This document shows, piece by piece, positions 4,694 to 58,579 of a stretch of DNA of 64,000 nt (position 1 is the first letter of the stretch; every line of letters begins with the position of its first letter). The translations under genes were made by a program, and so were the position numbers. Source of the DNA: Microcoleaceae cyanobacterium (GTDB lineage Bacteria > Cyanobacteriota > Cyanobacteriia > Cyanobacteriales > Microcoleaceae). Under the pieces are notes generated by a model. The model was not told where the DNA came from, did no database searches, and saw only the letters and a program-made list of their open reading frames with translations. The stretch spans positions 42,984 to 106,983 of the forward strand of contig JBOFUV010000131.1 in the NCBI GenBank assembly GCA_051652765.1. The letters are read 5' to 3'.

Positions 4694-5659
<966 letters not shown>

Positions 5660-44181: not shown

Positions 44182-44856
44182 ATGATTCTTTGTATTGCGG
44201 ATGTTTTGACCCCAGATGAGCTGCAGCAGATTAATGCTGTCCTCAAAACAGCTAGCTTTGTAGACGGTAAAGCAACGGCTGGGTGGCACGCTCGCTTGGT
44301 CAAGCACAATACTCAGTGGGCTAAAGATGCGGCGATCGCTCCAAAAATCAACAGCCTGATCCATGGAGCCCTAGCCCGGAACGCTCTGTTTCAGATGGCG
44401 GTTCGTCCTAAGTCAGTGAGTCAGCCCTTATTCAGTCGGTATGAATCGGGGATGTTTTACGGCACCCATGTGGACAATGCGGTCATGACAGACAATCAAG
44501 TGTTGATGCGCTCTGATGTTTCACTCACGTTGTTCTTGAGTGATCCGACCACTTATCAGGGGGGAGAGTTGGTCATTGAAACAACCCAGGGGGAAGAGGT
44601 CTTCAAGCTAGAGGCTGGAGCAATCGTCACTTATCCTTCCTCAACGTTGCACCGAGTTGAACCGATTACCCAGGGGATACGCTTAGTGGTTGTTGCTTGG
44701 GTTCAGAGCCTAGTGCGAGACCCAAATCAACGAGAAATTTTGTTTGATCTAGACACTGCCCGCCAGACTTTGTTTCAGCAGTATGGCAAGACTCCAGAAT
44801 TTGATCTGATTGCTAAAAGTCATGCCAACCTCTTGCGTCGGTGGATTGAGCTTTAG
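44182..44856 (+). CDS. piuC: PKHD-type Fe(II)/2OG dioxygenase (PiuC/YbiX family)
   Basis: FVDGKATAG, YGTHVDN, RSDVSLTLFLSDP..YQGGEL, LHRVEP, NLLRRW. Confidence 0.88.
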   Translation: MILCIADVLTPDELQQINAVLKTASFVDGKATAGWHARLVKHNTQWAKDAAIAPKINSLIHGALARNALFQMAVRPKSVSQPLFSRYESGMFYGTHVDNAVMTDNQVLMRSDVSLTLFLSDPTTYQGGELVIETTQGEEVFKLEAGAIVTYPSSTLHRVEPITQGIRLVVVAWVQSLVRDPNQREILFDLDTARQTLFQQYGKTPEFDLIAKSHANLLRRWIEL

Positions 44857-44883
44857 ATAACTAAACATATTTTTAAGTAGTTA

Positions 44884-44913
44884 ATTGACAAATATTTTCA
44901 TTAGATTTAGAAT
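44884..44913 (+). promoter_or_regulatory. Fur-like box overlapping a sigma70-type promoter
   Basis: ATTGACAAATATTTTCATT (44884-44902); TTGACA 44885-44890 and TAGAAT 44908-44913 with 17-bp spacing. Confidence 0.65.
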
Positions 44914-44959
44914 TTCAATTTGAACAGTTGCACATTAAGCCGAAGGTGAGGAGTAACAG

Positions 44960-45730
44960 ATGAGCCACAGTAAAGCGAAGGTTTGGATTGGGATAGGTGC
45001 CTATATTCTTTCAGGCGCTAGTGTGATTACGGCTACTGCTGAGATCTCTTCCGCAGAAGCACAGATGGATCAGACTGACTCTGCGTTGAATAGCCCTGCG
45101 GTTCCCTCGTCCAGTAGCACACAGTTTGTCCAGATGCTAGCTCAAGGTGGAGAGGGCGGTGAGGGTGGTACTCCTGCATTTCAGGACAAGTTGAGCGGGA
45201 GTCAATTGGTGGATGCCCTGCGTCAGGGTGGCTACGTTATCTATTTCCGACATGCCCAGACTGAGAAAGACTACGCTGATCAGATTGATGCCAAAATGGG
45301 AGACTGCTCAACCCAACGGATGTTGAGCGAAATGGGTTGGCAGCAAGCGAAGAATATTGGCCAAGCGTTTCAGGCATTAAAGATTCCTGTTGGTCAGGTT
45401 TACTCCAGTGAATATTGTCGGGCTTGGCAGACGGCAGACTTGGCTTTTGGTCGCCATCAAAAAGATCCGAGACTAAACTTTGAACGCGCTGAAGAATACA
45501 CCGAAGCTCAGGTTGCGAAGATGCGAAGTGCCCTTACTCCCATGTTGGTAGCGGCTCCAGCCAGTGGCATGAATACTGTAATCGTGGGTCATGACGATGT
45601 ATTTGAATCCGCGACGGGTATCTATCCTGAGCCTCAAGGGGTAGCCTATATTGTCAAGCCAGATGGCAAAGGCGGCTTTGAACTCATTGCCAACTTACTT
45701 TCTGACGAGTGGGGAAAACTCTCTCGTTAA
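44960..45730 (+). CDS. Exported histidine phosphatase family protein
   Basis: Signal-like N-terminus, GGEGGEGG, FRHAQT, SSEYCRAWQTA, VGH. Confidence 0.85.
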   Translation: MSHSKAKVWIGIGAYILSGASVITATAEISSAEAQMDQTDSALNSPAVPSSSSTQFVQMLAQGGEGGEGGTPAFQDKLSGSQLVDALRQGGYVIYFRHAQTEKDYADQIDAKMGDCSTQRMLSEMGWQQAKNIGQAFQALKIPVGQVYSSEYCRAWQTADLAFGRHQKDPRLNFERAEEYTEAQVAKMRSALTPMLVAAPASGMNTVIVGHDDVFESATGIYPEPQGVAYIVKPDGKGGFELIANLLSDEWGKLSR

Positions 45731-45757: not shown

Positions 45758-46609
45758 ATGCCTAGATTGCCCGATGCACTTTGGTTAAATGTCAGTCCTA
45801 GCTTTCAAGCCTTTGATCGACCTCTTTTGCATGATTTATCTCAATCTGTCTCAGTTGCTCAGTGGGAATATTCTCAGACTATAGATGAACCTGCGTCCCT
45901 TGAAGTTGCTTTAGATCTACTGCATGACTATCTTGAGAAATGTTGTCTAGAATCTACTCCAGAAAACTTCAAGGTTCATCTTTTGGGTCATAGCACTGGC
46001 GGACTTCTGGGTTTACTTTATGCCCGCCGCTATCCAGAGCATGTCAGATCCTTAACTCTACTTGCAGTTGGGGTTCACCCCGCAGTGAACTGGCAGGCTC
46101 ATTACTACGCCCTGCTTCAGTTTTTGCTGGGCGATCGCCAGATGTTGCTGAATCAGATGGTTCATAGCTTATTTGGTCATCCGGCCAAGCCAGTTGTTCC
46201 CAATTTAGTGGAAGCCCTAGAACAGGATTTAGGGCAAGCTCTATCTCCCCATTCTCTGTTTGATCGCGGCAGCATTCCGTCAGGTGGGGTTAATGTGCCC
46301 CTGTGCGTTTGTGGGAGTCGAGATGATGTGATCGTTGAGCCTAAGGAACTGGAGGGATGGAAACAGTTTTTAAAGTTAGGAGATCGGATTTGGCAGTGTC
46401 CCGGCGGAAGACACTTCTTCCACTATTTTTATCCTGAGCTAGTTAGTGAGCAATTGTTAGACTTTTGGAGTTTTTTGGAAGGGGCGAGTTCTCAACCTTG
46501 CAACGGCAAGAGTAGCTTAACCCGAAATTTGCTGAATCAATCTTTTCTCAATCAGCTTTTTAGGCGTGATTTTATGGAATTTACGGGTGAAACGGCAAGA
46601 TTCTGTTGA
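45758..46609 (+). CDS. IsiC-like alpha/beta hydrolase
   Basis: WLNVSPS, GHSTGG, WQAHYY, GRHFFHYF; paralog of 57821-58579. Confidence 0.8.
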   Translation: MPRLPDALWLNVSPSFQAFDRPLLHDLSQSVSVAQWEYSQTIDEPASLEVALDLLHDYLEKCCLESTPENFKVHLLGHSTGGLLGLLYARRYPEHVRSLTLLAVGVHPAVNWQAHYYALLQFLLGDRQMLLNQMVHSLFGHPAKPVVPNLVEALEQDLGQALSPHSLFDRGSIPSGGVNVPLCVCGSRDDVIVEPKELEGWKQFLKLGDRIWQCPGGRHFFHYFYPELVSEQLLDFWSFLEGASSQPCNGKSSLTRNLLNQSFLNQLFRRDFMEFTGETARFC

Positions 46610-47207
46610 ACATAACTTTGCTGAGCATAACTTTGTTGAACATAACTTTACTGAACATAGCTCTGTTGAACATAACTCTGTTGAAGCTGAAGTTGATTAC
46701 AACCCAGCGGAACCTCAAGTGGATGAAGGCTCTGTTGTAATGCAATCAGTTGTAGTTCAATCAGTTACCACCGATCAAGAACGAGCGGCCCTGTACGAGC
46801 AACGCTGGTTCGTCCTGAGAAAGCCCCTAGCCTTGGAACGGGGGACAGAACAAGATCAGTATGACCCTGAGCCGCAAACCTGTCACTTTGCGGCATCATG
46901 CAGCTCGCAAATGGTTGGGTCTGCTCGCTTTCGGCAACTGTCTCCAACGTTAGGTAGTATTGCTTATGTAGCTGTTTTGCCAGAGTTCCAACGTCGAGGC
47001 ATTGGAACGGCCTTGGTAAAGTATGCGATTAAAATTGCTCGCCAGAGAGACTGTCAACAGGTGCGACTGATGAGTCGGAGCGATGCTATGGATTTCTACA
47101 AAAAGCTAGGATTCTGCGAAATCGGAGCACCCATTGACGTTCTCGGGATTCCCCACCAATTCATGTCCCTTAACTTGCTTTTTGCTCAGGATAAGGAGTT
47201 GAGTTAA
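46566..47207 (+). CDS. GNAT family N-acetyltransferase (ElaA/YjcF-like)
   Basis: RWFVLRKPL, VAVLPEFQRRGIG, FYKKLGF, IPHQFM; start uncertain (46566 or ~46740). Confidence 0.85.
   Translation: MILWNLRVKRQDSVEHNFAEHNFVEHNFTEHSSVEHNSVEAEVDYNPAEPQVDEGSVVMQSVVVQSVTTDQERAALYEQRWFVLRKPLALERGTEQDQYDPEPQTCHFAASCSSQMVGSARFRQLSPTLGSIAYVAVLPEFQRRGIGTALVKYAIKIARQRDCQQVRLMSRSDAMDFYKKLGFCEIGAPIDVLGIPHQFMSLNLLFAQDKELS
46605..46685 (+). repeat. About five degenerate 15-bp tandem repeats (gttgaacataacttt) encoding VEHNF-like units
   Basis: Direct reading. Confidence 0.75.
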
Positions 47208-48174
47208 GTCCTGAATCTAACACCTTTAGCCTTAAATCCTTGATCGCATACTTCACAAATTCCGAAGCTTTTGTAGCATTACAAGACCCAATTAACGTGA
47301 GAGTTTTATGTTCATCTTTTACCAGTTGAGCTTTGCAAGAGTACACAACACTACTACAACGACTAAAAGCTAATTCAACCTGAATGACGGCTTTGTCTGC
47401 ATCAGAACCAATGAATTGACAAGCAACCTTGTAACCCAGCCATTTCCACCCGTAAAACAGCAGGAGTTCTCGCTCTAAAACTTGAATCTCAATCGGCAAG
47501 ATTCCCCAACCCCGATAAACTCGATTGAGGCAATTTGTGCTTCCAGTTTGGGTCAATATACACCGGAAGGAGCTGTCCTCTAGCAAACCATAATATCTGC
47601 CGTCCGGAAAATCAATCATCGTTGGAGCAAACCGATGTCCACCGAAGTGACTACTTCTCCAAATCCGAACATTTTGAATTCCTAGCTCTGCAACTGTTAG
47701 GGTGGCTTGTTTATAGAATGGAATCCCATATTTGGCACAACATTTATCATGGCTACCGTGGGTGCAAACGAGAATGTCTCTAGCCTGACTAGACTGAATT
47801 AATTGCTCTGGTAATTCACCTGCAATGTATTGTCTTGTAGCTTCTGTTGCTTGTTCTAGACTGCTAACTTCGATTTCCCAACCATCATATCCGGTGGAGA
47901 ATTCTTCTTGGATTTGTTCGTATATGATTAACTTTAGTTGACTTAAGTTCTGACGTTGATCTTGAGTAATTAATAGAAATCGAATGGGTAGTTTAGCCTG
48001 CTTCACCTCTTCGACTAAACACTTTAAACGATTAGGAATATGAGAAGACTCAAAGGCATCAGTAGCCCAAGGCATCGGATATTCAATCAAGATATAAGTC
48101 GAGTAGTTTGTTCCGCTCCCAATAATATCTTCATCAGCTTGTCGGCAAGCTTCAGCACAAAAGAACTTATTCAT
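47170..48174 (-). CDS. Sucrase/ferredoxin-like protein
   Basis: VCTHGSHDKCCAKYG, SSHFGGHRFAPT, DGRYYG, YRGWG. Confidence 0.9.
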   Translation of the reverse strand: MNKFFCAEACRQADEDIIGSGTNYSTYILIEYPMPWATDAFESSHIPNRLKCLVEEVKQAKLPIRFLLITQDQRQNLSQLKLIIYEQIQEEFSTGYDGWEIEVSSLEQATEATRQYIAGELPEQLIQSSQARDILVCTHGSHDKCCAKYGIPFYKQATLTVAELGIQNVRIWRSSHFGGHRFAPTMIDFPDGRYYGLLEDSSFRCILTQTGSTNCLNRVYRGWGILPIEIQVLERELLLFYGWKWLGYKVACQFIGSDADKAVIQVELAFSRCSSVVYSCKAQLVKDEHKTLTLIGSCNATKASEFVKYAIKDLRLKVLDSGLNSTPYPEQKAS

Positions 48175-48228
48175 GTTTACAAGTCATTTCTCTACAGGTT
48201 ACTAATTGTTGTTGCTAACATGTTGTTG

Positions 48229-49377
48229 CTAACAGTTAGGGTCTACTAAAACAATGCCTTCAAGGACTAACTGAGAGAGCAATGGCATCAAATCCAGCTC
48301 CCAATCAAATCCGGAAAACCAATCTGTAACATCCCTGCCCGTAAACTGTTCCTGGCTGAATAGTTGTTCAACCCTAGTTTTGGACACCCCTCTTAATGAA
48401 ACTTCTTTGCCGTTGGCAAACACCTGACATTCATCGTCATCAGATTCTTGTAAGATCTGAACCTTTTGAAAGGGGACAGTCTTAAATTGAGTGTCGATGC
48501 CGTGAGGAAATACGTTGAACCCGGCTTGATAGGGGAGAGCATATTGAGTCGTTGGCTGCCCCAAACTGTTTAGGTAGCGACTATACGCCTCACCAACGTT
48601 TTGATCCGTCAGATAGTCAGTCAACGCTTGAACGAGATCCTCAATTGCGGGCAACGTTCTGGGTTGTAACGGTAAACTCCTTCGCCACTGCTCCTGGTTG
48701 CTGAATTCCCCCGCTAGCCATTCCAAAAAGTGAATCCCAGTTTTTGGATGAACTCCCAAAGTCAGATGAATGGAAGGTTCCTCCACGGTCGCTGCATAGT
48801 GCCAATGACCCCGAGGAATATACAACACATCTCCTGGACAAAGAACACAGCTCAAATCGGGATCACCCTCAGGTGGAGTCGCATCGGTAAACCGTTGACT
48901 GGGGAGTGGAGATTGGAACGTTTCGGGGTAGACAGACCACTGCTTAGATCCTGCCACCTGTAATGCAAAAACTTCGTGGGTGTCGTAATGAAGCTTGAAT
49001 CCTGGGTGGCTTGACCAAGAACAGTAGGCATTAACCTGAGTAGGAGACCCTAATTCAAACTGTATCCTTGCAGCAAAATTAGCAATCTCTGGAACATGCT
49101 TGTGAACCTGGCTAAAAATGAGTGTGGCTCCCTGACGACACCAATGCAGCAATTTAGCATTTTCGGATTCATCCAGAACTTTGCCATCAATCGCGAGCCG
49201 TAAGTCAGGATACTTAATTTGGTGAAAGTTGAGCAGATCGTTCAGATGCTCCCAAGAAAACAAGTTTGTGAAGCTTCTTTGACCTTTACTGGATAGAGCG
49301 ATCGCCCGCTTTGTCCAATTGTTTTGAAGAAACTCCTCTACGCTGGAGGGTTGCAAAAGAATAGCAAGGGCTTCCAT
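48229..49377 (-). CDS. JmjC/Cupin_4 (YcfD/ROXA-like) 2OG-Fe(II) oxygenase
   Basis: NAYCS..GFKLHYDTHEVFALQVAGSKQW (HxD), PGDVLYIPRGHWH (distal His), SIHLTLG. Confidence 0.9.
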   Translation of the reverse strand: MEALAILLQPSSVEEFLQNNWTKRAIALSSKGQRSFTNLFSWEHLNDLLNFHQIKYPDLRLAIDGKVLDESENAKLLHWCRQGATLIFSQVHKHVPEIANFAARIQFELGSPTQVNAYCSWSSHPGFKLHYDTHEVFALQVAGSKQWSVYPETFQSPLPSQRFTDATPPEGDPDLSCVLCPGDVLYIPRGHWHYAATVEEPSIHLTLGVHPKTGIHFLEWLAGEFSNQEQWRRSLPLQPRTLPAIEDLVQALTDYLTDQNVGEAYSRYLNSLGQPTTQYALPYQAGFNVFPHGIDTQFKTVPFQKVQILQESDDDECQVFANGKEVSLRGVSKTRVEQLFSQEQFTGRDVTDWFSGFDWELDLMPLLSQLVLEGIVLVDPNC

Positions 49378-49546
49378 AGTCTAGACGTTCTGGCGAAATG
49401 ATTCTAATGCTCAAAGCTTCTGACATTCAAAGCTTTTGACACTCAACGACTCAGTTGATCCCACTTCTAGTCAAAGTTCTCACCTGACAACCCTTGTTGT
49501 TACAACTGTCGTTACAACACCCATCCCCAGACTATAAACTCACCTG

Positions 49547-49584
49547 CATTGGGGGAATTGATCACAAGATCACTCCCCTCAATG
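49547..49584 (-). other. Stem-loop between the small ORF and the JmjC gene
   Basis: cattgggggaattgatc-acaa-gatcactcccctcaatg inverted repeat. Confidence 0.6.
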
Positions 49585-49785
49585 GTTCAGACTCTGTGCC
49601 TAAGACCTGTTAGCAAAAAATACTAAACTAATTCAACAATCAAGACGATTGGCTGATCTAAATCAACTTTGCAAGCTGGGTTGACACTAGGAACCCAACA
49701 GACTTTTGAACGTGTTAGCTAACGATTAGGTCTTACACCCTTGACACCAGCTTACACAAACCTAATTCAGTTGGATAAACCTGTC

Positions 49786-49932
49786 CTAGTCTCCCCCATC
49801 TGAATCAACATTCAGGGGAGCTGCTGTATTCTGAGTCGTTCCGGTTGGAACAACATTCTTGATCTCAATCTGAATCTTGCTAGGACGAGATGGATTCAGG
49901 ACTGAATCACTAGCACTGGATATTGTTGACAT
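49786..49932 (-). CDS. 48-aa peptide absent from the ORF track; candidate RiPP precursor MSTISSASDSVLNPSRPSKIQIEIKNVVPTGTTQNTAAPLNVDSDGGD
   Basis: Manually translated; AGGAG RBS 7 nt before ATG; TAG at 49788-49786; upstream of and co-oriented with the JmjC gene. Confidence 0.7.
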   Translation of the reverse strand: MSTISSASDSVLNPSRPSKIQIEIKNVVPTGTTQNTAAPLNVDSDGGD

Positions 49933-50028
49933 AGTTTGTCTCCTAAGTAGAATGCACCGATCGGGCTCTAAGCAACTCCTAGAAATCTAGGAATTAGACT
50001 TAGATGCGCTTACAAGTATATCTAACAG

Positions 50029-50064
50029 ATTGTAGATATGCAACTGTTGCAAGTCTATCTCAAC
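50029..50064 (-). promoter_or_regulatory. Fur-like box over the putative promoter of the small peptide gene
   Basis: Minus strand GTTGAGATAGACTTGCAAC (50064-50046); TAGACT (50057-50052) then 17 bp then TACAAT (50034-50029). Confidence 0.5.
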
Positions 50065-50192: not shown

Positions 50193-50211
50193 ATTAAGAA
50201 CTACTATCAAT
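50193..50211. promoter_or_regulatory. Fur-like box
   Basis: Minus strand ATTGATAGTAGTTCTTAAT, next to a minus-strand TTGACA at 50222-50217. Confidence 0.5.
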
Positions 50212-50377: not shown

Positions 50378-50396
50378 ATTGCATATAGTTTTCAAT
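50378..50396 (+). promoter_or_regulatory. Fur-like box upstream of the isiA cluster
   Basis: ATTGCATATAGTTTTCAAT, 19-bp imperfect palindrome, downstream of TTGACA at 50358-50363. Confidence 0.65.
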
Positions 50397-50449: not shown

Positions 50450-51517
50450 ATGACCAGTATGGTGACTGATGCTTTTCCAGCCGAGGGGAGTGCTTATCCC
50501 TGGTGGGCTGGGAACGGGCGATTAGCGAGTTTATCGGGGCGCTTACTCGGTGCTCACGTTGCCCATGCAGGTCTGATTGTGTTCTGGGCAGGGGCTTATA
50601 CTCTGTTTGAACTCGGGCAGTTCAATCCTGATTTGCCGATGTATGAACAAGGGTTAATTCTGTTGCCTCACCTAGCAGCCCAAGGTTGGGGCGTTGGTGC
50701 GGGAGGAGCCGTGACCAACACTCACCCCTATTTTGTGATTGGAGTGTTGCATCTGATCAGTTCGGCCTTTCTGGGGTTTGGTGGAATTTTCCATGCCATT
50801 AAGGGGCCAGAGGTTCTGGAAAACCAATTTTCCTTCTTTGGCTATTCCTGGGAAGATGGCAAAAAAATGACCACTATCATTGGCATCCACTTGCTATTGC
50901 TGGGCAGTGGTGCATTTTTGTTAGTGGCCAAAGCAATGTTTTTCAATGGCCTTTACGATACCACAATCAGTGATCTGCGGGTGGTGACGAATCCAACCTT
51001 GAATCCGGCCAAAATTTTTGGCTATTTGTTTGGTGCAGAGGGCAAGTATTGGCTAGCTGCCGTGGACAATCTGGAAGATTTGGTTGGGGGTCACACCTAC
51101 ATCGGTTTAATGCTGATCGGTGGTGGCATTTGGCACATTCTGACAGAGCCGTTTGGTTGGACGAAGCGACTGTTCATTTGGTCGGGAGAAGCCTATCTGT
51201 CCTATAGCATTGGGGCTGTGGCTTTGATGTCGTTCATTGCTGCGTTGTTTGTGTCAGTCAATACCATTGCTTACCCCCCTGAATTCTATGGGCCAACTCT
51301 GAACGTTGGACTGGAGCAGTTTCCCTATTTCCGGGGGGAACAGGGAATTTTAACCCCTCGGGTGTGGTTAGCAAATGCTCAGTTTTGGCTTGGCTTTTTC
51401 TTTCTACAAGGTCATATCTTTCATGCTCTGCGAGCTGCGGGATTTGATTTTCGCACGGGCAAGCGTGTCCAAGACTTGGTGTTGGCAGCCAATGCGCCGA
51501 AGGAGGTGACTTCATGA
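50450..51517 (+). CDS. IsiA/Pcb family chlorophyll-binding protein (paralog 1)
   Basis: [47 protein letters not shown]. Confidence 0.92.
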
Positions 51518-52515
51518 CCGTTGCAGTCTCCCAGAAACAAGTCTCCCAGAAACAATATGACTGGTTGGCCGGAAATGCCCGCTTCACCCATCTCTCTGGC
51601 AAGCTCCTCGGGGCCCATGTTGCCCACGCGGGGTTGATTGTTCTTTGGGCTGGAGCAATGACCTTGTTTGAAGTTTCAAAGTTTGATCCGAGTCTTCCAA
51701 TGCCGGAACAAGGGTTAATTTTGTTACCTCACTTAGCCAGTTTGGGAATTGGGGTGGGAGCCGGAGGCCAGATTGTGGATACCTATCCCTATTTTGTGAT
51801 TGGTATGGTGCATTTGATCAGTTCGGCGGTGTTGGGTGCAGGAGGGCTGTACCACACGTTGCTCGGTGCTGACGTTTTACCTCAGGACAACTCCTTCTCT
51901 GGGTTCTTTGGCTATGACTGGACAGATAAGGGCAAGATGACCAGCATCTTGGGAATTCATCTCCTGTTGCTAGGGCTTGGGGCTTGGTTATTGGCGGCGA
52001 AGGCCATGTTTTGGGGTGGGCTCTATGATCCAACCGTTGAACAGGTGCGCGTTGTGACTGACCCCAGCCTGAACCCGGTTCGGATCTTTAGCTACTTGTT
52101 GGGACTACACGGTATAAAAGGCATGGCCGCCGTTAATAACTTGGAAGACTTGGTTGGAGGCCATGTCTGGGTTGGATTCCTGTGTATTCTAGGGGGTCTG
52201 TGGCACATTGGCACCAAACCCTTTGCTTGGGCAGAACGAATTCTGTACTGGTCGGGAGAGGCTTATCTCTGCTACAGTCTGGGCGCTTTGGCCTACATGG
52301 GTTTCCTGGCTGGATATTTTGTCACATTCAACACGGTGGCTTATCCCGAAGCCTTTTACGGGCCAGTCGGTGGCGTGAACGAATTAGGGGCAATCAGCGC
52401 TCGCACGTGGTTAGCCAATAGCCATTTTGTCTTGGCAGGGGTGCTCTTGCTGGGGCACTTCTGGCACGCAATTCGAGTTCGAACCTTTGCTGCAACGGAG
52501 GTAGATTACCGATGA
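51514..52515 (+). CDS. IsiA/Pcb family chlorophyll-binding protein (paralog 2)
   Basis: Same CP43-like motifs; ATGA overlap with upstream gene. Confidence 0.92.
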
Positions 52516-53978
52516 CTGCAACTGCATCCTTTTCATCTCCTCCGTCTCAGGCTAAATCTGTGCAGAAATATGGCTGGTGGGCGGGTAACGCTCGACTGAC
52601 TGAGCTTTCTGGCAGGCTCCTAGGGGCTCATATTGCTCAAGCTGCCTTAATTGTGTTCTGGGCAGGAGCCTATACCTTGTTTGAGCTTTCCCAGTACACT
52701 CCAACTGAACCTCTGTATTCTCAAGGGTTGATTCTGCTGCCTCACCTGGCTAGTTTGGGAATTGGTCTGGGAGAAGGGGGTCAAGTCGTGAACACCTATC
52801 CCTATTTTGCGATTGGGGTGCTGCACTTGGTGAGTTCAGCCGTTCTGGGAGCTGGGGGACTTTACCATGCCTTACTGGGGCCAGAACAGTTGCCAGAAAA
52901 CCAGACGTTCTCTGGTTTCTTTGGCTATGACTGGCGCGACCAGAACAAAATGACCACGATTATCGGCATTCATTTGGTATTGCTGGGGTGTGGGGCTTTA
53001 TTGCTGGTCGCCAAGGCGATGTTTGTGGGCGGGCTGTACGATCCAGCCGTTGGCCATCTGCGCCTTGTCAGTGAACCGACTCTGAATCCAGCCACGATCT
53101 TTGGCTACTTAATTGGGGCTCAGGGGGATGCCGGGATGGCCGCAGTTGACAACCTAGAAGATGTTGTGGGCGGTCACATTTATGTGGGCTTGATTCTGAT
53201 TGGGGGAGGAGTTTGGCATATTTTGACTCAGCCAGGTCGTTGGACTCAGTCCTTGCTGCTGTGGTCAGGGGAAGCTTACTTGTCCTACAGTTTAGGCGCG
53301 TTAGCCTACATGGGATTTCTGGCGGCCTACTTTGTCATGGTCAATGATACCGTCTACCCAATAGTATTTTATGGGCCTGTGGGTTTGTCGGTGACTGAGG
53401 CAGGAATTGTCACCTCTCGCACCTGGTTAGCAACGTCCCATTTTGTGCTGGCCGTGGTGTTCCTCTTTGGTCATCTCTGGCACGCCCTGCGGGTACGGTT
53501 GACTGCCGCCAAATTTGACCTGCAATCTGGAACGTTCATCACACCCAATATTGGTGAACTTCAGGCCATTCAAATGATGGGACAGGTCAATCCGTCTGAC
53601 TTGACTGTGGTGTTTTTGCGAAACTTGCCGATTTATCGTCAGCGAGTCTCCCCCCAGTTTCGGGGCTTGGAAATTGGCATGGCCCATGGTTACTTTCTGG
53701 CGGGGCCGTTGATGGTGTTGAATCCGTTTGGTTTTCAAACCGGATTAACCCTGACCATTGTCTTCGTGAGTTTGATTGCGATCGCTCTGTCTTGGTATCA
53801 AGTAGAAGATTCGGCTGCTAATGCCAGACCTCAACTGTATTGGCTAAAAAATCTGGAGCAGTGGAGTTCCTTCCGCTCTGGTTTTTTGGTGGGCGGGGTC
53901 GGAGGTGCGCTGTTTGCCTACTTCCTAGTCCAAAACACGGAACTGTTCAGGGCGTTGATCCAGGGTGTTCCTGGCTAG
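52512..53978 (+). CDS. IsiA family protein fused to a C-terminal PsaL-like domain
   Basis: CP43-like N-terminal part, then [29 protein letters not shown] and [20 protein letters not shown] (PsaL signatures). Confidence 0.92.
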
Positions 53979-54140
53979 GATAGTCAATTCAAGCGCCATA
54001 AAATTGGCAGTAAATACATTGGAAGCAAACAATTCCATTGATCAAACTTGGATCAACAAACAGGGGTTTTTGGATCTCCAAGTCGTTTCTCAGATCCCTG
54101 TTCTTAAACTTCAATCAACTTCTATCTCAGGTGAACAATC

Positions 54141-55241
54141 ATGCAAAGTTACGGAAAGGCAAAGATTCAATATGGTTGGTGGGCCGGGAATGCGCGCTTT
54201 GCTAACCTATCGGGCTTGTTTATTGCTGCCCATGTTGGTCAAGCTGCGTTAATTACCTTTTGGGTTGGGGCATTTACTCTGTTTGAAATTAGCCGCTATT
54301 CCCCTGATTTCCCCATGGGTGAACAAGGATTAATTCTCCTGCCCCATCTGGCTACCCTAGGTTTGGGCATTGGTAAAGGGGGTGTTGTGGTCAATACCTA
54401 TCCTTATTTTGTTGTGGGAGTGGTTCACTTGATTTCTTCTGCGGTGTTAGGGGCAGGAGCGTTATTTCATGCATTCAAGTGCCCTGAAAACCTCAAAGAT
54501 ACGACGGGCCGCGCCCAGAAGTTTCACTTTGAGTGGAGCGATGCCAAGAAGTTGGGATTTATCTTGGGTCATCATTTGATTTTCCTGGGAGCAGGAGCCT
54601 TGGCGCTGGTAGCAAAAGCCATGTATTTTGGCGGGTTGTATGATTCCACCACTCAAACGGTTCGGGTCGTAACAGCTCCTACCCTCGACCCCTTAGTGAT
54701 CTACGGCTATCAAACTCACTTTGCCACAGTGAACAGCTTGGAAGACTTAGTGGGCGGTCATGTCTATGTGGGGATTCTGCTAATTTTGGGGGGTGCGTGG
54801 CACATTGTAAAGGAGCCCCTTCCCTGGGCAAAACGCCTGTTGATCTTCTCTGGAGAAGCAATTTTGTCCTATTCTCTGGGCGGGATTGCCTTGGCCGGAT
54901 TTGTCGCGGCTTACTTCTGTGCCGTTAACACGTTGGCTTACCCAGTTGAATTCTATGGCCCAGTTCTAGATATTAAGTTGGGTGTGAGTCCTTATTTTGC
55001 CGATACGGTTGTGTTACCCAACGGGGCTCATACGGCCCGATGCTGGTTAGCAAATACCCATTTCTTCTTAGCGTTTTTCTTCCTTCAAGGTCATCTCTGG
55101 CACGCGCTGCGGGCTCTGGGCTTTGACTTCAAGCGGGTTGAAAATGCTCTGAATTCAACCGGAGAAGCTCCAATGACAATCACAGGTCAGCCTGAACCTG
55201 CAAAAGCAACATCTGTCGAAGCAGCTACAGCCGAAGCATAA
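54141..55241 (+). CDS. isiA: Iron stress-induced chlorophyll-binding protein (canonical type)
   Basis: MQSYG...[47 protein letters not shown]. Confidence 0.93.
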
Positions 55242-55336
55242 GTCTTAGGGCGAGCTTGTCTCGCCCTGAACCAGCTTTGAAGCCTTTGATGGAAGTAGTT
55301 ATTTCTTCTAGCTGTCTTGAATTGACTGTCTTAAAT

Positions 55337-55507
55337 GGCGTTGCTGAACTGAGGCATGAATCGGTCGTTCGGCGAGTTCAGCCGAGCCGTCGAACCCTGT
55401 AATGCTGCACTGCCCCCCAAATCCCCCAACCTTGGGGGACTTTGAGAAATGGCTCCCCCAGAATTGGGGGGCAAAGGGGGGCGACCACACCACTATTCAG
55501 CAACGCC
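55337..55507. mobile_element. 171-bp MITE with 12-bp terminal inverted repeats and 8-bp target-site duplication
   Basis: GGCGTTGCTGAA...TTCAGCAACGCC, flanked on both sides by TCTTAAAT (55329-55336, 55508-55515); internal G/C-run palindromes; no transposase. Confidence 0.85.
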
Positions 55508-55541
55508 TCTTAAATTAATTGTCTTGAATCAGGAGGAATCG

Positions 55542-56558
55542 ATGACGGTCTCAAGTTACACGAATTCAACTTACGCCAATTCAACCCATGCCTCAACTTA
55601 CACCCAGGGAACAATTGCAGCAGAAAACCCCCAATTAAGCTGGCTAGTAGGCAATGCTCGGTTGACGAATTTATCGGGTCAATTGTTAGGGGCACACCTC
55701 GCCCATGCAGGGTTAATCATGTTCTGGGCTGGGGCAATTACCGTTGCAGAAGTCAGTCGCTATGTTCCCAATCGTTCCTTCGCCGAACAAAGTCTGGGAC
55801 TGCTGCCCCATTTGGCAACCCTGGGTTGGGGAATTGGCAAAGATGGCGCAATTGTTGACACCTATCCCTACTTTGTGATCGGTATGTTGCACCTGGCAGC
55901 ATCAGCAGTATTAGCCGCCGGGGGGTTTTATCATGTCTTTCGTGGCCCTGCCCGGTTGGAAGATGGAGAAAGACAAGTGGCTCAATTTCATTACGAGTGG
56001 ACGAACCCAAAGCAACTGAGCTTTATTCTGGGTAATCATCTGATTTTTCTGGGAATTGGGGCTTGGTTGTTCGTTTTGAAAGCAATGAAGTTTGGCGGAA
56101 TTTATGATACAGCTTTGGGTCATGGTCGCATCATTGCTGAACCCACTCTCAATCCGGTAACCATTTTTGGTTACTTGTTTGGCCTCAATCATGGCGTGTG
56201 GACACCTCTAGGGATGGCTAGTGTGAACAATCTGGAGGATGTGATCGGCGGTCACATTTGGGTTGGGACGCTGTTAATTGCGGGGGGAGTCTGGCATATC
56301 GTCAGTACACCGTTTCCCTGGGTACAGCGCATTCTACCCATTCAAGCGGATGCAATTCTCAGCTACAGTCTGGGAGCTTTAGGGTTTATGGCTTTTGTCT
56401 CAGCGGCTTTTGTCGGGTTCAACACTACGGTCTTCCCGACTGAATTTTATGGCAGCGATCGCCTCGGTCTAGCCAACATTCAGTTCTTTTTGGGGGTTTT
56501 GGCCTTGGGAGGACATCTCTGGCACGCGGTGCGCGCCCGCTCCCAGATGATCAGCTAA
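55542..56558 (+). CDS. IsiA/Pcb family chlorophyll-binding protein (paralog 5)
   Basis: WLVGNARL, LLGAHLAHAGL, NLEDVIGGH; AGGAGG RBS before ATG at 55542. Confidence 0.92.
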   Translation: MTVSSYTNSTYANSTHASTYTQGTIAAENPQLSWLVGNARLTNLSGQLLGAHLAHAGLIMFWAGAITVAEVSRYVPNRSFAEQSLGLLPHLATLGWGIGKDGAIVDTYPYFVIGMLHLAASAVLAAGGFYHVFRGPARLEDGERQVAQFHYEWTNPKQLSFILGNHLIFLGIGAWLFVLKAMKFGGIYDTALGHGRIIAEPTLNPVTIFGYLFGLNHGVWTPLGMASVNNLEDVIGGHIWVGTLLIAGGVWHIVSTPFPWVQRILPIQADAILSYSLGALGFMAFVSAAFVGFNTTVFPTEFYGSDRLGLANIQFFLGVLALGGHLWHAVRARSQMIS

Positions 56559-56581: not shown

Positions 56582-56621
56582 ATTAAAAAATTTTCTCATT
56601 TAACTGAGAAAGATTCCTAAT
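56582..56621. promoter_or_regulatory. Two tandem Fur-like boxes upstream of the isiB unit
   Basis: ATTAAAAAATTTTCTCATT and ACTGAGAAAGATTCCTAAT. Confidence 0.45.
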
Positions 56622-56879
56622 AAGCTAAAATCTGTTAGGATAGAACGTGTTCAGGTATCGCTATAGTTCTAGAGCTTGTATCCCTCGCCTGAAGTTCGAT
56701 TGATCCCTGATAATCTCTGAAAATCTTTTGAGCTGATTCTCAGGGATCTCCCAACACCTCTGATGGGTCAGGATTGAGGAGCGATGCATTTGGAGTTGAT
56801 CAGCTTGATTTGATTCAGAAATTTCTCATCAAACACCGAGTCCGATTTGAGAGATTCGTTTCGTCTTGGGATTAACGTT

Positions 56880-57053
56880 ATGAGAACTTGCCCATGCTGC
56901 GCTGAAACCTTGCTTCATCATATTTCTGGAGGTCGTTGCTACTGGTTCTGTTCTCACTGCTGGCAAGAAATGCCTGTGATTGATACAGCGGCAATCCCTA
57001 AGCTCCATCATCCATCTTTAGGTTTTCCTCAATCCGATTTTATTCCGTTGTAA
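56880..57053 (+). CDS. Small zinc-ribbon-like protein
   Basis: MRTCPCCAETLLHHI...YWFCSHCWQEMP. Confidence 0.75.
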   Translation: MRTCPCCAETLLHHISGGRCYWFCSHCWQEMPVIDTAAIPKLHHPSLGFPQSDFIPL

Positions 57054-57820: not shown

Positions 57821-58579
57821 ATGAAAATGCACACTTGTTTGCCTGAAGCTATCTGGTTAAATACAAGTCCAAGTTTTAAACATTTCGACCGAGGGTTACT
57901 AGCTGAAATTGCGACAACAACTCGGATTGGTTACTGGGAATATCAGCAGGATTTAGACGAACCCAGTTTACTCAGCGTTGTGCTAACTCTAGTTCATGAC
58001 TATCTCAAATCCCTCAGTCAGCCTGTTCATTTGATTGGACATAGCACAGGAGGATTAATTGGCTTACTCTATGCGCGCAAGCACCCAGAACGGGTGAAGT
58101 CCCTAACGCTTCTTGCGGTTGGGATTCATCCTGCGGTGGATTGGAAAGCGCATTACTATGTGCAACAGCAATTACTGCCCTGCCCCCGTGAAGAACTACT
58201 TGATCAAATGGTTCGGATGTTGTGTGGTTGTCAGTCTCCCATCGCTGAACAGAAAATTGTTCAGCTTCTCAAGCAAGACTTGGCAGAATCTTTTTCACTG
58301 CATTCGCCCTTTCAACGCATTAGTTTACCTTCCGGTGGCGTGCCTGTTCCGTTAATGATTGGTGGTAGTCAAACCGATAACATTATTAGCCTGCGTGAAT
58401 TGCAAGAGTGGAGAGTTTTTTTTAAACCAGGCGATCGCCTCTGTCAGTTTCCTCAAGGCGGTCACTTTTTTCACTATTTCTTTCCTCAACTGGTAAACGC
58501 AGAAATTCTCAAGTTTTGGACAGAGATTGATCAGTCCTCCAAAACTACCGCCAGTTCTACGGTTAACTGCAATACCTGA
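57821..58579 (+). CDS. isiC: Iron-stress alpha/beta hydrolase
   Basis: GHSTGG, WKAHYY, GHFFHYF; directly after isiB as in known isiABC operons. Confidence 0.75.
   Translation: MKMHTCLPEAIWLNTSPSFKHFDRGLLAEIATTTRIGYWEYQQDLDEPSLLSVVLTLVHDYLKSLSQPVHLIGHSTGGLIGLLYARKHPERVKSLTLLAVGIHPAVDWKAHYYVQQQLLPCPREELLDQMVRMLCGCQSPIAEQKIVQLLKQDLAESFSLHSPFQRISLPSGGVPVPLMIGGSQTDNIISLRELQEWRVFFKPGDRLCQFPQGGHFFHYFFPQLVNAEILKFWTEIDQSSKTTASSTVNCNT

Follow-up and report, generated by a model that had tools for sequence, protein, structure and literature searches.

A conserved peptide, JmjC oxygenase and sucrase-ferredoxin cassette with a predicted Fur-like operator in filamentous cyanobacteria

We analysed a stretch of 64,000 nucleotides (nt) from a Microcoleaceae cyanobacterium (contig JBOFUV010000131.1 of assembly GCA_051652765.1), referred to here as the window. 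Its minus strand carries, in this order, an open reading frame (ORF) for a 48-residue peptide, a gene for a JmjC-type Fe(II)/2-oxoglutarate (2OG) oxygenase and a gene for a sucrase/ferredoxin-like protein, all in the place and on the strand first proposed for them (ORF and Pfam check; Table 1). Comparison with related genomes establishes that this cassette is real and widespread, and it is undescribed within the literature that we searched. Its regulation by iron is well supported, and its product is putative: the cassette probably makes a chemically modified peptide, which possibly binds iron.

The 48-residue ORF is almost certainly a genuine peptide gene. With the JmjC protein as query, we collected 164 genome-contig relatives and kept the best 80 (50–75% identity, with titles almost all cyanobacterial). 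Of these 80 loci, 77 have a precursor ORF ahead of the JmjC gene (76 found by pattern, L068 by eye). The preliminary description had read the peptide as a leader followed by a core and had suggested looking for short ORFs upstream of JmjC homologues; both the conserved ORF and this layout recur across the 77 loci, and the strong ribosome-binding site (RBS) that it saw before the window ORF is present. In the 76 pattern-found loci, the ORFs encode 42–66 residues and lie 80–1521 nt upstream of the JmjC gene; in the Okeania/Trichodesmium group this distance is 500–1500 nt. The precursors combine a leader strand with the consensus RxSKIQ[IV]E[VI]K[ED]I and one to three cores of the form LNxD[AS]DG[GS]D, with one core copy in 47 of the 76, two in 15 and three in 12, the other 2 being atypical. 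Among 73 unique precursors, themselves selected by the leader motif, the leader Ser and Ile are invariant (73/73) and the Arg nearly so (67/73). The counts for the core columns are L 66, N 58, D 71, D 71, G 72 and D 69, and the first core Asp follows the leader Ser by 24–25 residues in 72 of the 73. Variability at the three codon positions (0.155, 0.064 and 0.357 in 34 dereplicated sequences) and a ratio of synonymous to non-synonymous single-base codon differences of 3863:1126 in the same set point to coding selection on the precursor.

The three loci without a precursor are L041, for which only 542 nt upstream are available, and L076 and L080, which retain eroded remnants; at L080 the ferredoxin has been lost along with the peptide. 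The spacer before the JmjC gene of L041 (positions 1–542) is filled by a long tandem repeat. The window precursor is a single copy in its own genome and matched no Pfam, NCBIfam or Atlas family; six other precursors matched no NCBIfam family. Behind the peptide gene, the 413-nt spacer folds better than 100 of 100 shuffles (z −2.81). A structured spacer was rightly proposed, although it holds about four hairpins instead of two stem-loops. Of the 34 promoter-set loci, 23 show a stable hairpin after the stop codon of the peptide gene (z < −2, mononucleotide shuffles); for the window's own first 90 nt after the stop, z is only −0.6.

Many filamentous cyanobacteria carry the cassette, among them Trichodesmium, which fixes nitrogen in the ocean. 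The sucrase-ferredoxin gene follows the JmjC gene in 75 of the 80 loci, and a convergent GNAT acetyltransferase gene, absent from the first description of the locus, is present in 67; several of the misses are cut contigs. By clustering, the remaining neighbours differ from genus to genus. Across 401 genomes of the phylum, a JmjC homologue (E ≤ 1e-20) occurs in 27, of which 9 are of the peptide-ferredoxin type. Of these 9 genomes, 8 have a GNAT orthologue (E < 1e-37); the 392 without the cassette have none (next best E 5e-16), and in one genus (g2) ferredoxin and GNAT are present in the same 5 of 19 genomes. Since kin genomes are not independent (this applies to five of six kin-genome tests), we rely on no cross-genome p-value. 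The GNAT protein gave generic matches only. Its reading frame opens (46566–46742, plus strand) with EHNF/EHNS-type repeats that are absent from its homologues, and its true start is probably at 46743.

The sucrase-ferredoxin carries a CX8C...HGGH-type [2Fe-2S] motif (C137, C146, H176 and H180) that all 76 cyanobacterial cassette proteins share, and C6, H139, C145 and C298 are further conserved residues. No relative of solved structure was found for this protein. Stand-alone paralogous ferredoxins adjoin iron-uptake genes in 5 of 30 loci: one (L214) has a TonB receptor on one side and an Fe-siderophore binding protein on the other, and the four others stand beside Fe(II) permeases. In family f5, where all 46 genomes have a Suc_Fer gene, cassette-type ferredoxin orthologues stand alone (L215–L242), with strong Fur-like boxes at L218 and L236.

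We next consider the oxygenase. The AlphaFold model of the JmjC protein (predicted local distance difference test, pLDDT, 94) matched NO66, MINA53 and YcfD with TM-scores of 0.6–0.7 at about 20% identity. The HxD...H triad, described earlier as intact, is indeed present (H130, D132 and H193), and these three residues together with K145 and H204 are invariant in 108 aligned homologues. The C-terminal 93 residues (290–382) comprise three strands and three helices arranged as a winged helix. The best match of this domain is the winged helix of MINA53 (Z 9.2), followed at Z 6–7.6 by a halogenase domain and by proteins bearing the recognition element (RRE) of RiPPs (peptides that the ribosome makes and that are modified after translation), namely PbtF (Z 7.1, root-mean-square deviation 3.3, 82 aligned), McbB (7.1), TigE (6.7) and TbiB1 (6.1). 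A Foldseek search with the domain gave no match at E ≤ 0.001. The modelled domain fits a role in leader binding. A model of the peptide-JmjC complex, suggested at the outset as a check, scored 0.56 versus 0.02 for the best control, which the tool itself rates as weak support. The mark used for such scores is reached by 51 of 78 solved pairs and by 2 of 108 mismatched pairs, and scores of at most 0.60 account for 5 of the 78 solved pairs and for all 4 passing mismatches of 180. The runs share at least 42% of contacts, the partner pLDDT is at least 49, and no interface was given; folding proceeded without alignments, and the score may be too low on that account. We consider it highly probable that the peptide is the substrate of the JmjC enzyme.

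That the cassette is iron-regulated in cyanobacteria is very likely, as proposed from the window, in view of a conserved promoter box and published Trichodesmium RNA sequencing (RNA-seq), with weaker data at the protein level. A Fur-like promoter had been claimed at 50029–50064. The site lies at 50046–50064 and is weak by itself (10 of 14 matches, shuffle p ~0.11, rank 121 of 179 intergenic matches in its own genome); the boxes of relatives are clearer at the same position. We scanned 33 dereplicated promoters with a cyanobacterial Fur consensus of 14 scored positions. The motif found de novo in these promoters is a −35/−10 pair, and in 27 of the 33 relatives TAnnnT stands 16–19 nt beyond the anchor, versus a background of 10.8%. 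The 19-mer ending 0–2 nt before the −35 anchor has at least 10 of 14 Fur matches in 24 of 33 promoters versus 1.9% of other positions, and the Fur consensus ranks first of 5040 composition-matched palindromes at the anchored site. A plain promoter scan was at chance level (6 sites found, 7.4 expected). We also derived a box matrix from the boxes of 27 relatives, leaving out the window, L001 and L002. Its register was set with the consensus, so that the following ranks in the own genome are partly circular: isiB 3, futA 17 and 45, dpsA 18, isiA 21 and 38, and heme oxygenase 41. Sites before RTX calcium-binding proteins rank 1, 8 and 11. On another contig of this genome (C150), near-perfect Fur-like boxes at 5309 and 6989 precede genes for a 744-residue RTX calcium-binding protein and a 414-residue unknown protein. 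The palindromic box upstream of the cassette, less than 100 nt ahead of the predicted start site, is conserved by position in relatives, and we infer that Fur may bind it.

The JmjC gene of the Trichodesmium erythraeum locus (L017) coincides in coordinates with Tery_3032. In the available part of an RNA-seq study of this organism, the log2 fold change between high and low iron is −1.81 for Tery_3032 (adjusted p 3.7e-19) and −1.79 for the ferredoxin gene Tery_3033 (adjusted p 1.9e-11), compared to −2.12 for isiB (PMC12090762). Both genes are about 3.5-fold up at low iron and belong to 157 changed genes, the main text naming neither; the flanking upstream TRAP genes are unmoved by iron. At the protein level, Tery_3032 is listed at a higher level under Fe limitation than under Fe/P co-limitation in the accessible tables of a second study (PMC4931248), and it was detected in two injections only in a third (PMC4642986). 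Spectral counts of 2, 2, 2 with phosphate and 0, 0, 1, 0, 2, 0 without are no higher in the absence of phosphate, so that induction of this protein by phosphate starvation is not seen (PMC6411698). Contigs from RNA libraries cover the precursor region of L017 in 4 of 4 runs, contigs being no proof of transcription; their depth cannot rank genes, so that neither the greater depth of short contigs over the peptide nor the gap immediately upstream (3 of 4 runs) was used.

More remote relatives of the JmjC protein are also found with peptides. In a sister clade (L113–L116, L118, L119 and L132), the precursors look signal-peptide-like, and the leader motif is retained as a related strand with altered cores made of other Asp/Tyr-rich repeats such as YDRGQD, NYDYSR and DQTQD. 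No ferredoxin accompanies these genes; a convergent nucleotidyltransferase-like gene does (weak matches in 2 of 4). This clade is a probable second, exported RiPP type. The more distant homologues L120–L125 have no such peptide. From metagenomes, 80 loci were kept among the matches listed, 78 of them distant. Many of these 78 encode long Asp/Gly-rich peptides (DxDGTD and DGGA repeats), often with the leader SGLLLSVEPL. Requiring at least 450 nt upstream and at least 500 nt downstream dropped 34 rows for short context; of the 44 distant loci retained, 20 have peptide and ferredoxin, 17 neither, 5 the ferredoxin only and 2 the peptide only. A GNAT profile gave no real match in the 78 distant loci among the matches listed, and no ferredoxin-GNAT fusion passed among 444 longer candidates, which is a weak test. 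As separate observations, JmjC homologues at L117, L127 and L128 stand beside genes that look, by reading their translations, like SagB/YcaO, TfuA and lanthipeptide enzymes, and Trp-rich repeat precursors (WDGDGWD) precede related JmjC genes at L155, L159 and L186, short contigs with no ferredoxin match. In one genome (G056), the JmjC gene (L105) and the GNAT gene (L250) each carry one internal TAA, which suggests joint decay of the cassette there.

The place of action can be approached through what accompanies the cassette. Precursors of the window clade have no signal peptide. The preliminary description saw no exporter or dedicated protease at the locus, and clustering agrees: no exporter, protease or receptor is conserved in the 80 close loci, where only ferredoxin and GNAT recur across genera, and the 115 neighbouring genes scanned at 18 distant loci included none, unrelated transporters aside. 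No TonB-dependent receptor was found in the own genome (G000, 99.97% complete) or in G257 and G293, that is, in three of six cassette genomes tested; three of the five other cassette genomes have one. Because the clade lacks signal peptides and three of the six genomes lack the receptor, an intracellular product is favoured, and the idea of an exported chelator is weakened.

These observations can be combined into the following proposal of a Fur-controlled cassette of four genes that modifies a peptide, which we take as the most likely reading. Under iron shortage, Fur would leave the box by the −35, and the peptide, JmjC and sucrase-ferredoxin genes would be transcribed. The leader strand may be held by the RRE-like domain at the C-terminus of the JmjC enzyme, which would use Fe(II), 2OG and O2 to beta-hydroxylate Asp in the D-x-D-G-x-D core or cores at their fixed distance from the leader. 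The product, with its clustered alpha-hydroxy-carboxylates, could bind Fe(III); probably left uncut, it might remain inside the cell and carry or buffer recycled iron. This iron might then be reduced and released by the [2Fe-2S] protein, and the GNAT enzyme might acetylate the peptide or a partner; these last two steps are the least certain. We regard Asp beta-hydroxylation as rather likely. The whole chain, from Fur-controlled Asp beta-hydroxylation to an iron-handling peptide kept in the cell, comes near to an even prospect but falls short of it, and the handling of iron inside the cell is, taken for itself, possible with somewhat more doubt. The most far-reaching form of the proposal would make this ribosomally encoded beta-hydroxyaspartate chelator a new RiPP class, in which a ROX-fold JmjC, as the defining enzyme, uses its winged helix as an RRE and the product serves as an intracellular iron carrier unloaded by a bis-His [2Fe-2S] protein, within the response of Trichodesmium and other filamentous cyanobacteria to low iron; this we put forward tentatively and with distinct reservation.

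Several observations weigh against this proposal. A Zur-like consensus comes second at the anchored promoter site with an almost equal score (9.70 versus 9.79), a znuA-like gene (6) and a metallothionein-like gene (15) are among the top matrix matches, most of which precede unrelated genes, and IdeR and Fur boxes occur before 33 distant precursors only at shuffle level. The induction comes from one RNA-seq study with 3+2+2 samples, whose available table is without the peptide gene, and the GNAT gene Tery_3035 is unresponsive to iron in the same data (PMC12090762). In the accessible part of the proteomic study, Tery_3032 is absent from the replete-versus-limited listing and its counts at high CO2 overlap (4.4–5.6 versus 3.2–7.9; PMC4931248). 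H180 of the ferredoxin is Asp in distant members (His in 0 of 26), and since cassette-type orthologues persist in family f5 in genomes without peptide or JmjC, the ferredoxin has a peptide-independent job. The RRE topology is common to ROX enzymes and the RRE matches stay below Z 8, so that the fold does not prove leader binding. Finally, modification, iron binding and translation of the peptide are what we infer, and the proposed chemistry has this standing throughout.

The principal alternative is a multi-step tailoring to a small molecule, in which the JmjC enzyme would hydroxylate Asp or the invariant Gly (with a backbone cut), the sucrase-ferredoxin would act as a second redox enzyme, as SmaX does after SmaO (PMC12186529, as far as its accessible text goes), and the GNAT would cap the released core; the product would be a low-iron signal, cofactor or antimicrobial and no chelator. 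The tandem cores, 7–8 residues long, resemble repeated product units, the extra invariant ferredoxin residues C6, H139, C145 and C298 suggest a second site, and the restriction of the GNAT orthologue to cassette genomes would fit a tailoring role. Against this stand the lack of a conserved protease or exporter, the long irregular Asp/Gly tracts of distant precursors, which show no clear cut site, and a GNAT gene that is neither iron-induced nor found near the distant JmjC genes among the matches listed. We judge it unlikely, though a serious competitor.

The cassette could instead be an iron or oxygen sensor. As with FIH and PHD, the degree of hydroxylation would report Fe(II) and 2OG, and the peptide would be a regulatory adaptor. 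FIH is the next fold match after the ROX enzymes, an Fe(II)-requiring enzyme is here induced by iron shortage, and the cassette has no export machinery; however, no conserved regulator or other target gene lies nearby, and the repeated cores would fit a ligand better than a switch, which makes a sensor improbable. A ribosomal siderophore that housekeeping systems cut and secrete, and that the cell then takes up again, would agree with the Fur box and the iron induction, with beta-hydroxy-Asp as a ligand of non-ribosomal siderophores, with the signal-peptide precursors of the sister clade and with the TonB receptors of some cassette genomes. It is unlikely because no exporter, protease or TonB receptor accompanies the cassette: the window clade lacks a signal peptide, neither the 80 close loci nor the 115 distant neighbours provide an exporter or receptor, and G000, G257 and G293 have no TonB receptor. 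We hold it to be quite improbable.

The peptide might also bind another metal (Ca, a lanthanide or Zn), with the box as a Zur site. The D-x-D-G-x-D core resembles Ca-binding loops, the Zur-like consensus ranks second, and no iron-box signal was seen outside cyanobacteria. The clear iron response in Trichodesmium and a mixed half-site position 6 (T 20, A 17 and G 14 of 52), unlike the strict TGATAAT, make this very improbable. Least credible of all is a RoxA/YcfD-type ribosomal-protein hydroxylase with an incidental small ORF, a possibility raised in the preliminary description for which the same fold and domain layout and the Joint Genome Institute label 'ribosomal protein L16 Arg81 hydroxylase' of homologues could be cited, since E. 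coli RoxA matches at only 27% identity over 191 residues (E 0.005) and falls outside the JmjC family on a long, unsure branch (FastTree; deep branches unsure), so that judged by sequence the cassette enzyme is not its orthologue, and since the JmjC gene is patchily distributed in the phylum and tightly coupled to the peptide, which L080 lost together with the ferredoxin.

Table 1. Features of the cassette and its promoter region in the window
Feature	Position	Strand	Basis or remark
JmjC Fe(II)/2OG oxygenase, ROX (NO66/MINA/YcfD) fold, 382 residues	48229..49377	-	Pfam JmjC_2, E 6e-24
C-terminal winged-helix domain of JmjC, RRE topology, residues 290-382	48232..48510	-	
Precursor peptide, 48 residues, C-terminal end AAPLNVDSDGGD	49786..49932	-	ORF and homologue comparison
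Leader recognition motif RPSKIQIEIKNV, predicted beta-strand	49852..49887	-	Precursor alignment
Core LNVDSDGGD	49789..49815	-	Precursor alignment
RBS TAGGAG	49940..49945	-	Before the 48-residue ORF; an RBS-like word precedes 71/76 homologous ORFs
Structured spacer	49378..49785	-	Hairpins ~49712-49756, 49547-49584, 49495-49520, 49409-49443
Sucrase/ferredoxin-like protein, 334 residues	47170..48174	-	Pfam Suc_Fer-like, E 6.7e-31
Convergent GNAT acetyltransferase	46566..47207	+	38-nt overlap with ferredoxin stop; probable real start 46743
Probable promoter	50015..50043	-	-35 TTGCAT (50038-50043), 17-nt spacer, -10 TATACT (50015-50020); predicted
Fur-like operator (19 bp), its end 2 nt ahead of the -35	50046..50064	-	Weak alone; position conserved in relatives
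Second Fur-like box, stronger, between cassette promoter and isiA	50193..50211	.	Own-genome rank 21/179
Third Fur-like box	50378-50396		Own-genome rank 38/179

The two boxes beyond the operator may serve isiA, the peptide operon or both. On the plus strand, five tandem isiA/CP43-like antenna genes (two Pfam-confirmed) occupy 50450–56558; the 488-residue protein encoded at 52512 has a C-terminal extension that may resemble PsaL. A 68-residue Cys-rich ORF (CPCC...CSHC; 56847–57053, plus strand) precedes the flavodoxin gene isiB, and position 56582 marks a strong Fur-like box; the ORF has no Pfam or NCBIfam match and fits IsiE as described in the literature, a likeness by description (PMC8634477). 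At 44182–45730 (plus strand), a PKHD/YbiX-type Fe dioxygenase gene is followed by one resembling histidine phosphatases, and a strong Fur-like box is found there at 44884 (rank 5), in this genome without a TonB receptor. The iron region has two related alpha/beta hydrolases at its sides (45758–46609 and 57821–58579, plus strand), and of the 80 loci, 4 (L001, L002, L075 and L078) have a homologue close to the cassette. The adjacency to isiA, which had been offered as context, did not prove meaningful, since this neighbourhood is local and not conserved; linkage as evidence was rejected, with no isiA match and an isiB match in 2 of 80 loci in the fetched flanks, many of which are cut short.

If the proposed chain is correct, an enzyme of the ribosomal-oxygenase type would be the basis of an additional RiPP class, the uncharacterised bacterial sucrase-ferredoxins would for the first time be seen in the setting of a concrete substrate, and the hydroxyaspartate ligand of non-ribosomal siderophores would have a gene-encoded route. 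It also suggests that the winged helix of ROX enzymes is the same device as the RRE. Nitrogen fixation by Trichodesmium is limited by iron, and two iron-responsive 'uncharacterised' genes of this organism would gain a testable substrate, an unannotated 55-residue peptide encoded at about 4,681,727–4,681,894 of NC_008312.1.

Small peptides tied to metal stress are known from other settings. Bufferins, thiooxazole peptides and methanobactin are small metal-stress-regulated RiPPs proposed to bind metal; their ligands are Cys-derived, made by MNIO enzymes, mostly for copper, and exported, whereas the cassette core has no Cys. The IRON MAN/FEP peptides of plants are small, Asp-rich, intracellular and induced by iron deficiency; being eukaryotic, they serve as an analogy only, and we know of no dedicated hydroxylase for them. 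Among enzymes, NO66, MINA53 and YcfD/RoxA share with the cassette JmjC the fold, the Fe/2OG residues and the C-terminal winged helix. The cassette enzyme differs from them by its low identity (17–21%), patchy distribution, dedicated small peptide and iron control. A MINA/No66 clade has been placed in bacterial peptide clusters, with no mention of a ferredoxin in the portion of that paper available to us (PMC2938197). The cassette ferredoxin resembles the thioredoxin-like ferredoxins Apd1 and Aim32, to judge from the accessible text, in its CX8C...HX3H motif (PMC8482512); it differs in its extra conserved Cys and His residues and in the replacement of the last His by Asp in distant members.

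We found no published description of a peptide-JmjC-ferredoxin cassette in a search that left most subscription journals and bioRxiv supplements outside. The closest systems, each compared through the accessible part of its report, are hydroxylases of RiPP precursors. SmaO, an Fe(II)/2OG enzyme of a group 18 graspetide cluster, beta-hydroxylates Asp before Gly in the DGDG core of its precursor, which is the kind of target proposed here (PMC12186529). Unlike the cassette enzyme, SmaO has an ATP-grasp ligase and SmaX, an HD enzyme, as partners and is not called a JmjC protein, and neither a sucrase-ferredoxin nor iron regulation was seen in what that report makes available. BipG (biphenomycin, PMC12707348) and CzlI (curacozole, PMC11575548) are JmjC hydroxylases acting on RiPP precursors; CzlI resembles YxbC and requires flanking sequence. 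Both are accessory enzymes that target Orn and Phe within larger clusters with other class-defining enzymes, proteases and transporters, whereas the cassette has no candidate for the primary modifier besides its JmjC. MppG from Moorena producens is a cyanobacterial Fe/2OG peptide hydroxylase with a His/Asp/His triad, leader dependence and a C-terminal RRE (bioRxiv 10.64898/2026.10.04.756588), a likeness by description and not by sequence; it differs from the cassette enzyme in working on a lanthionine-cyclised core behind a long Nif11-type leader in a LanM cluster. SmaO, BipG, CzlI and MppG already exemplify Fe/2OG hydroxylases on RiPP precursors; the cassette would be a further variant of RiPP-type peptide hydroxylation.

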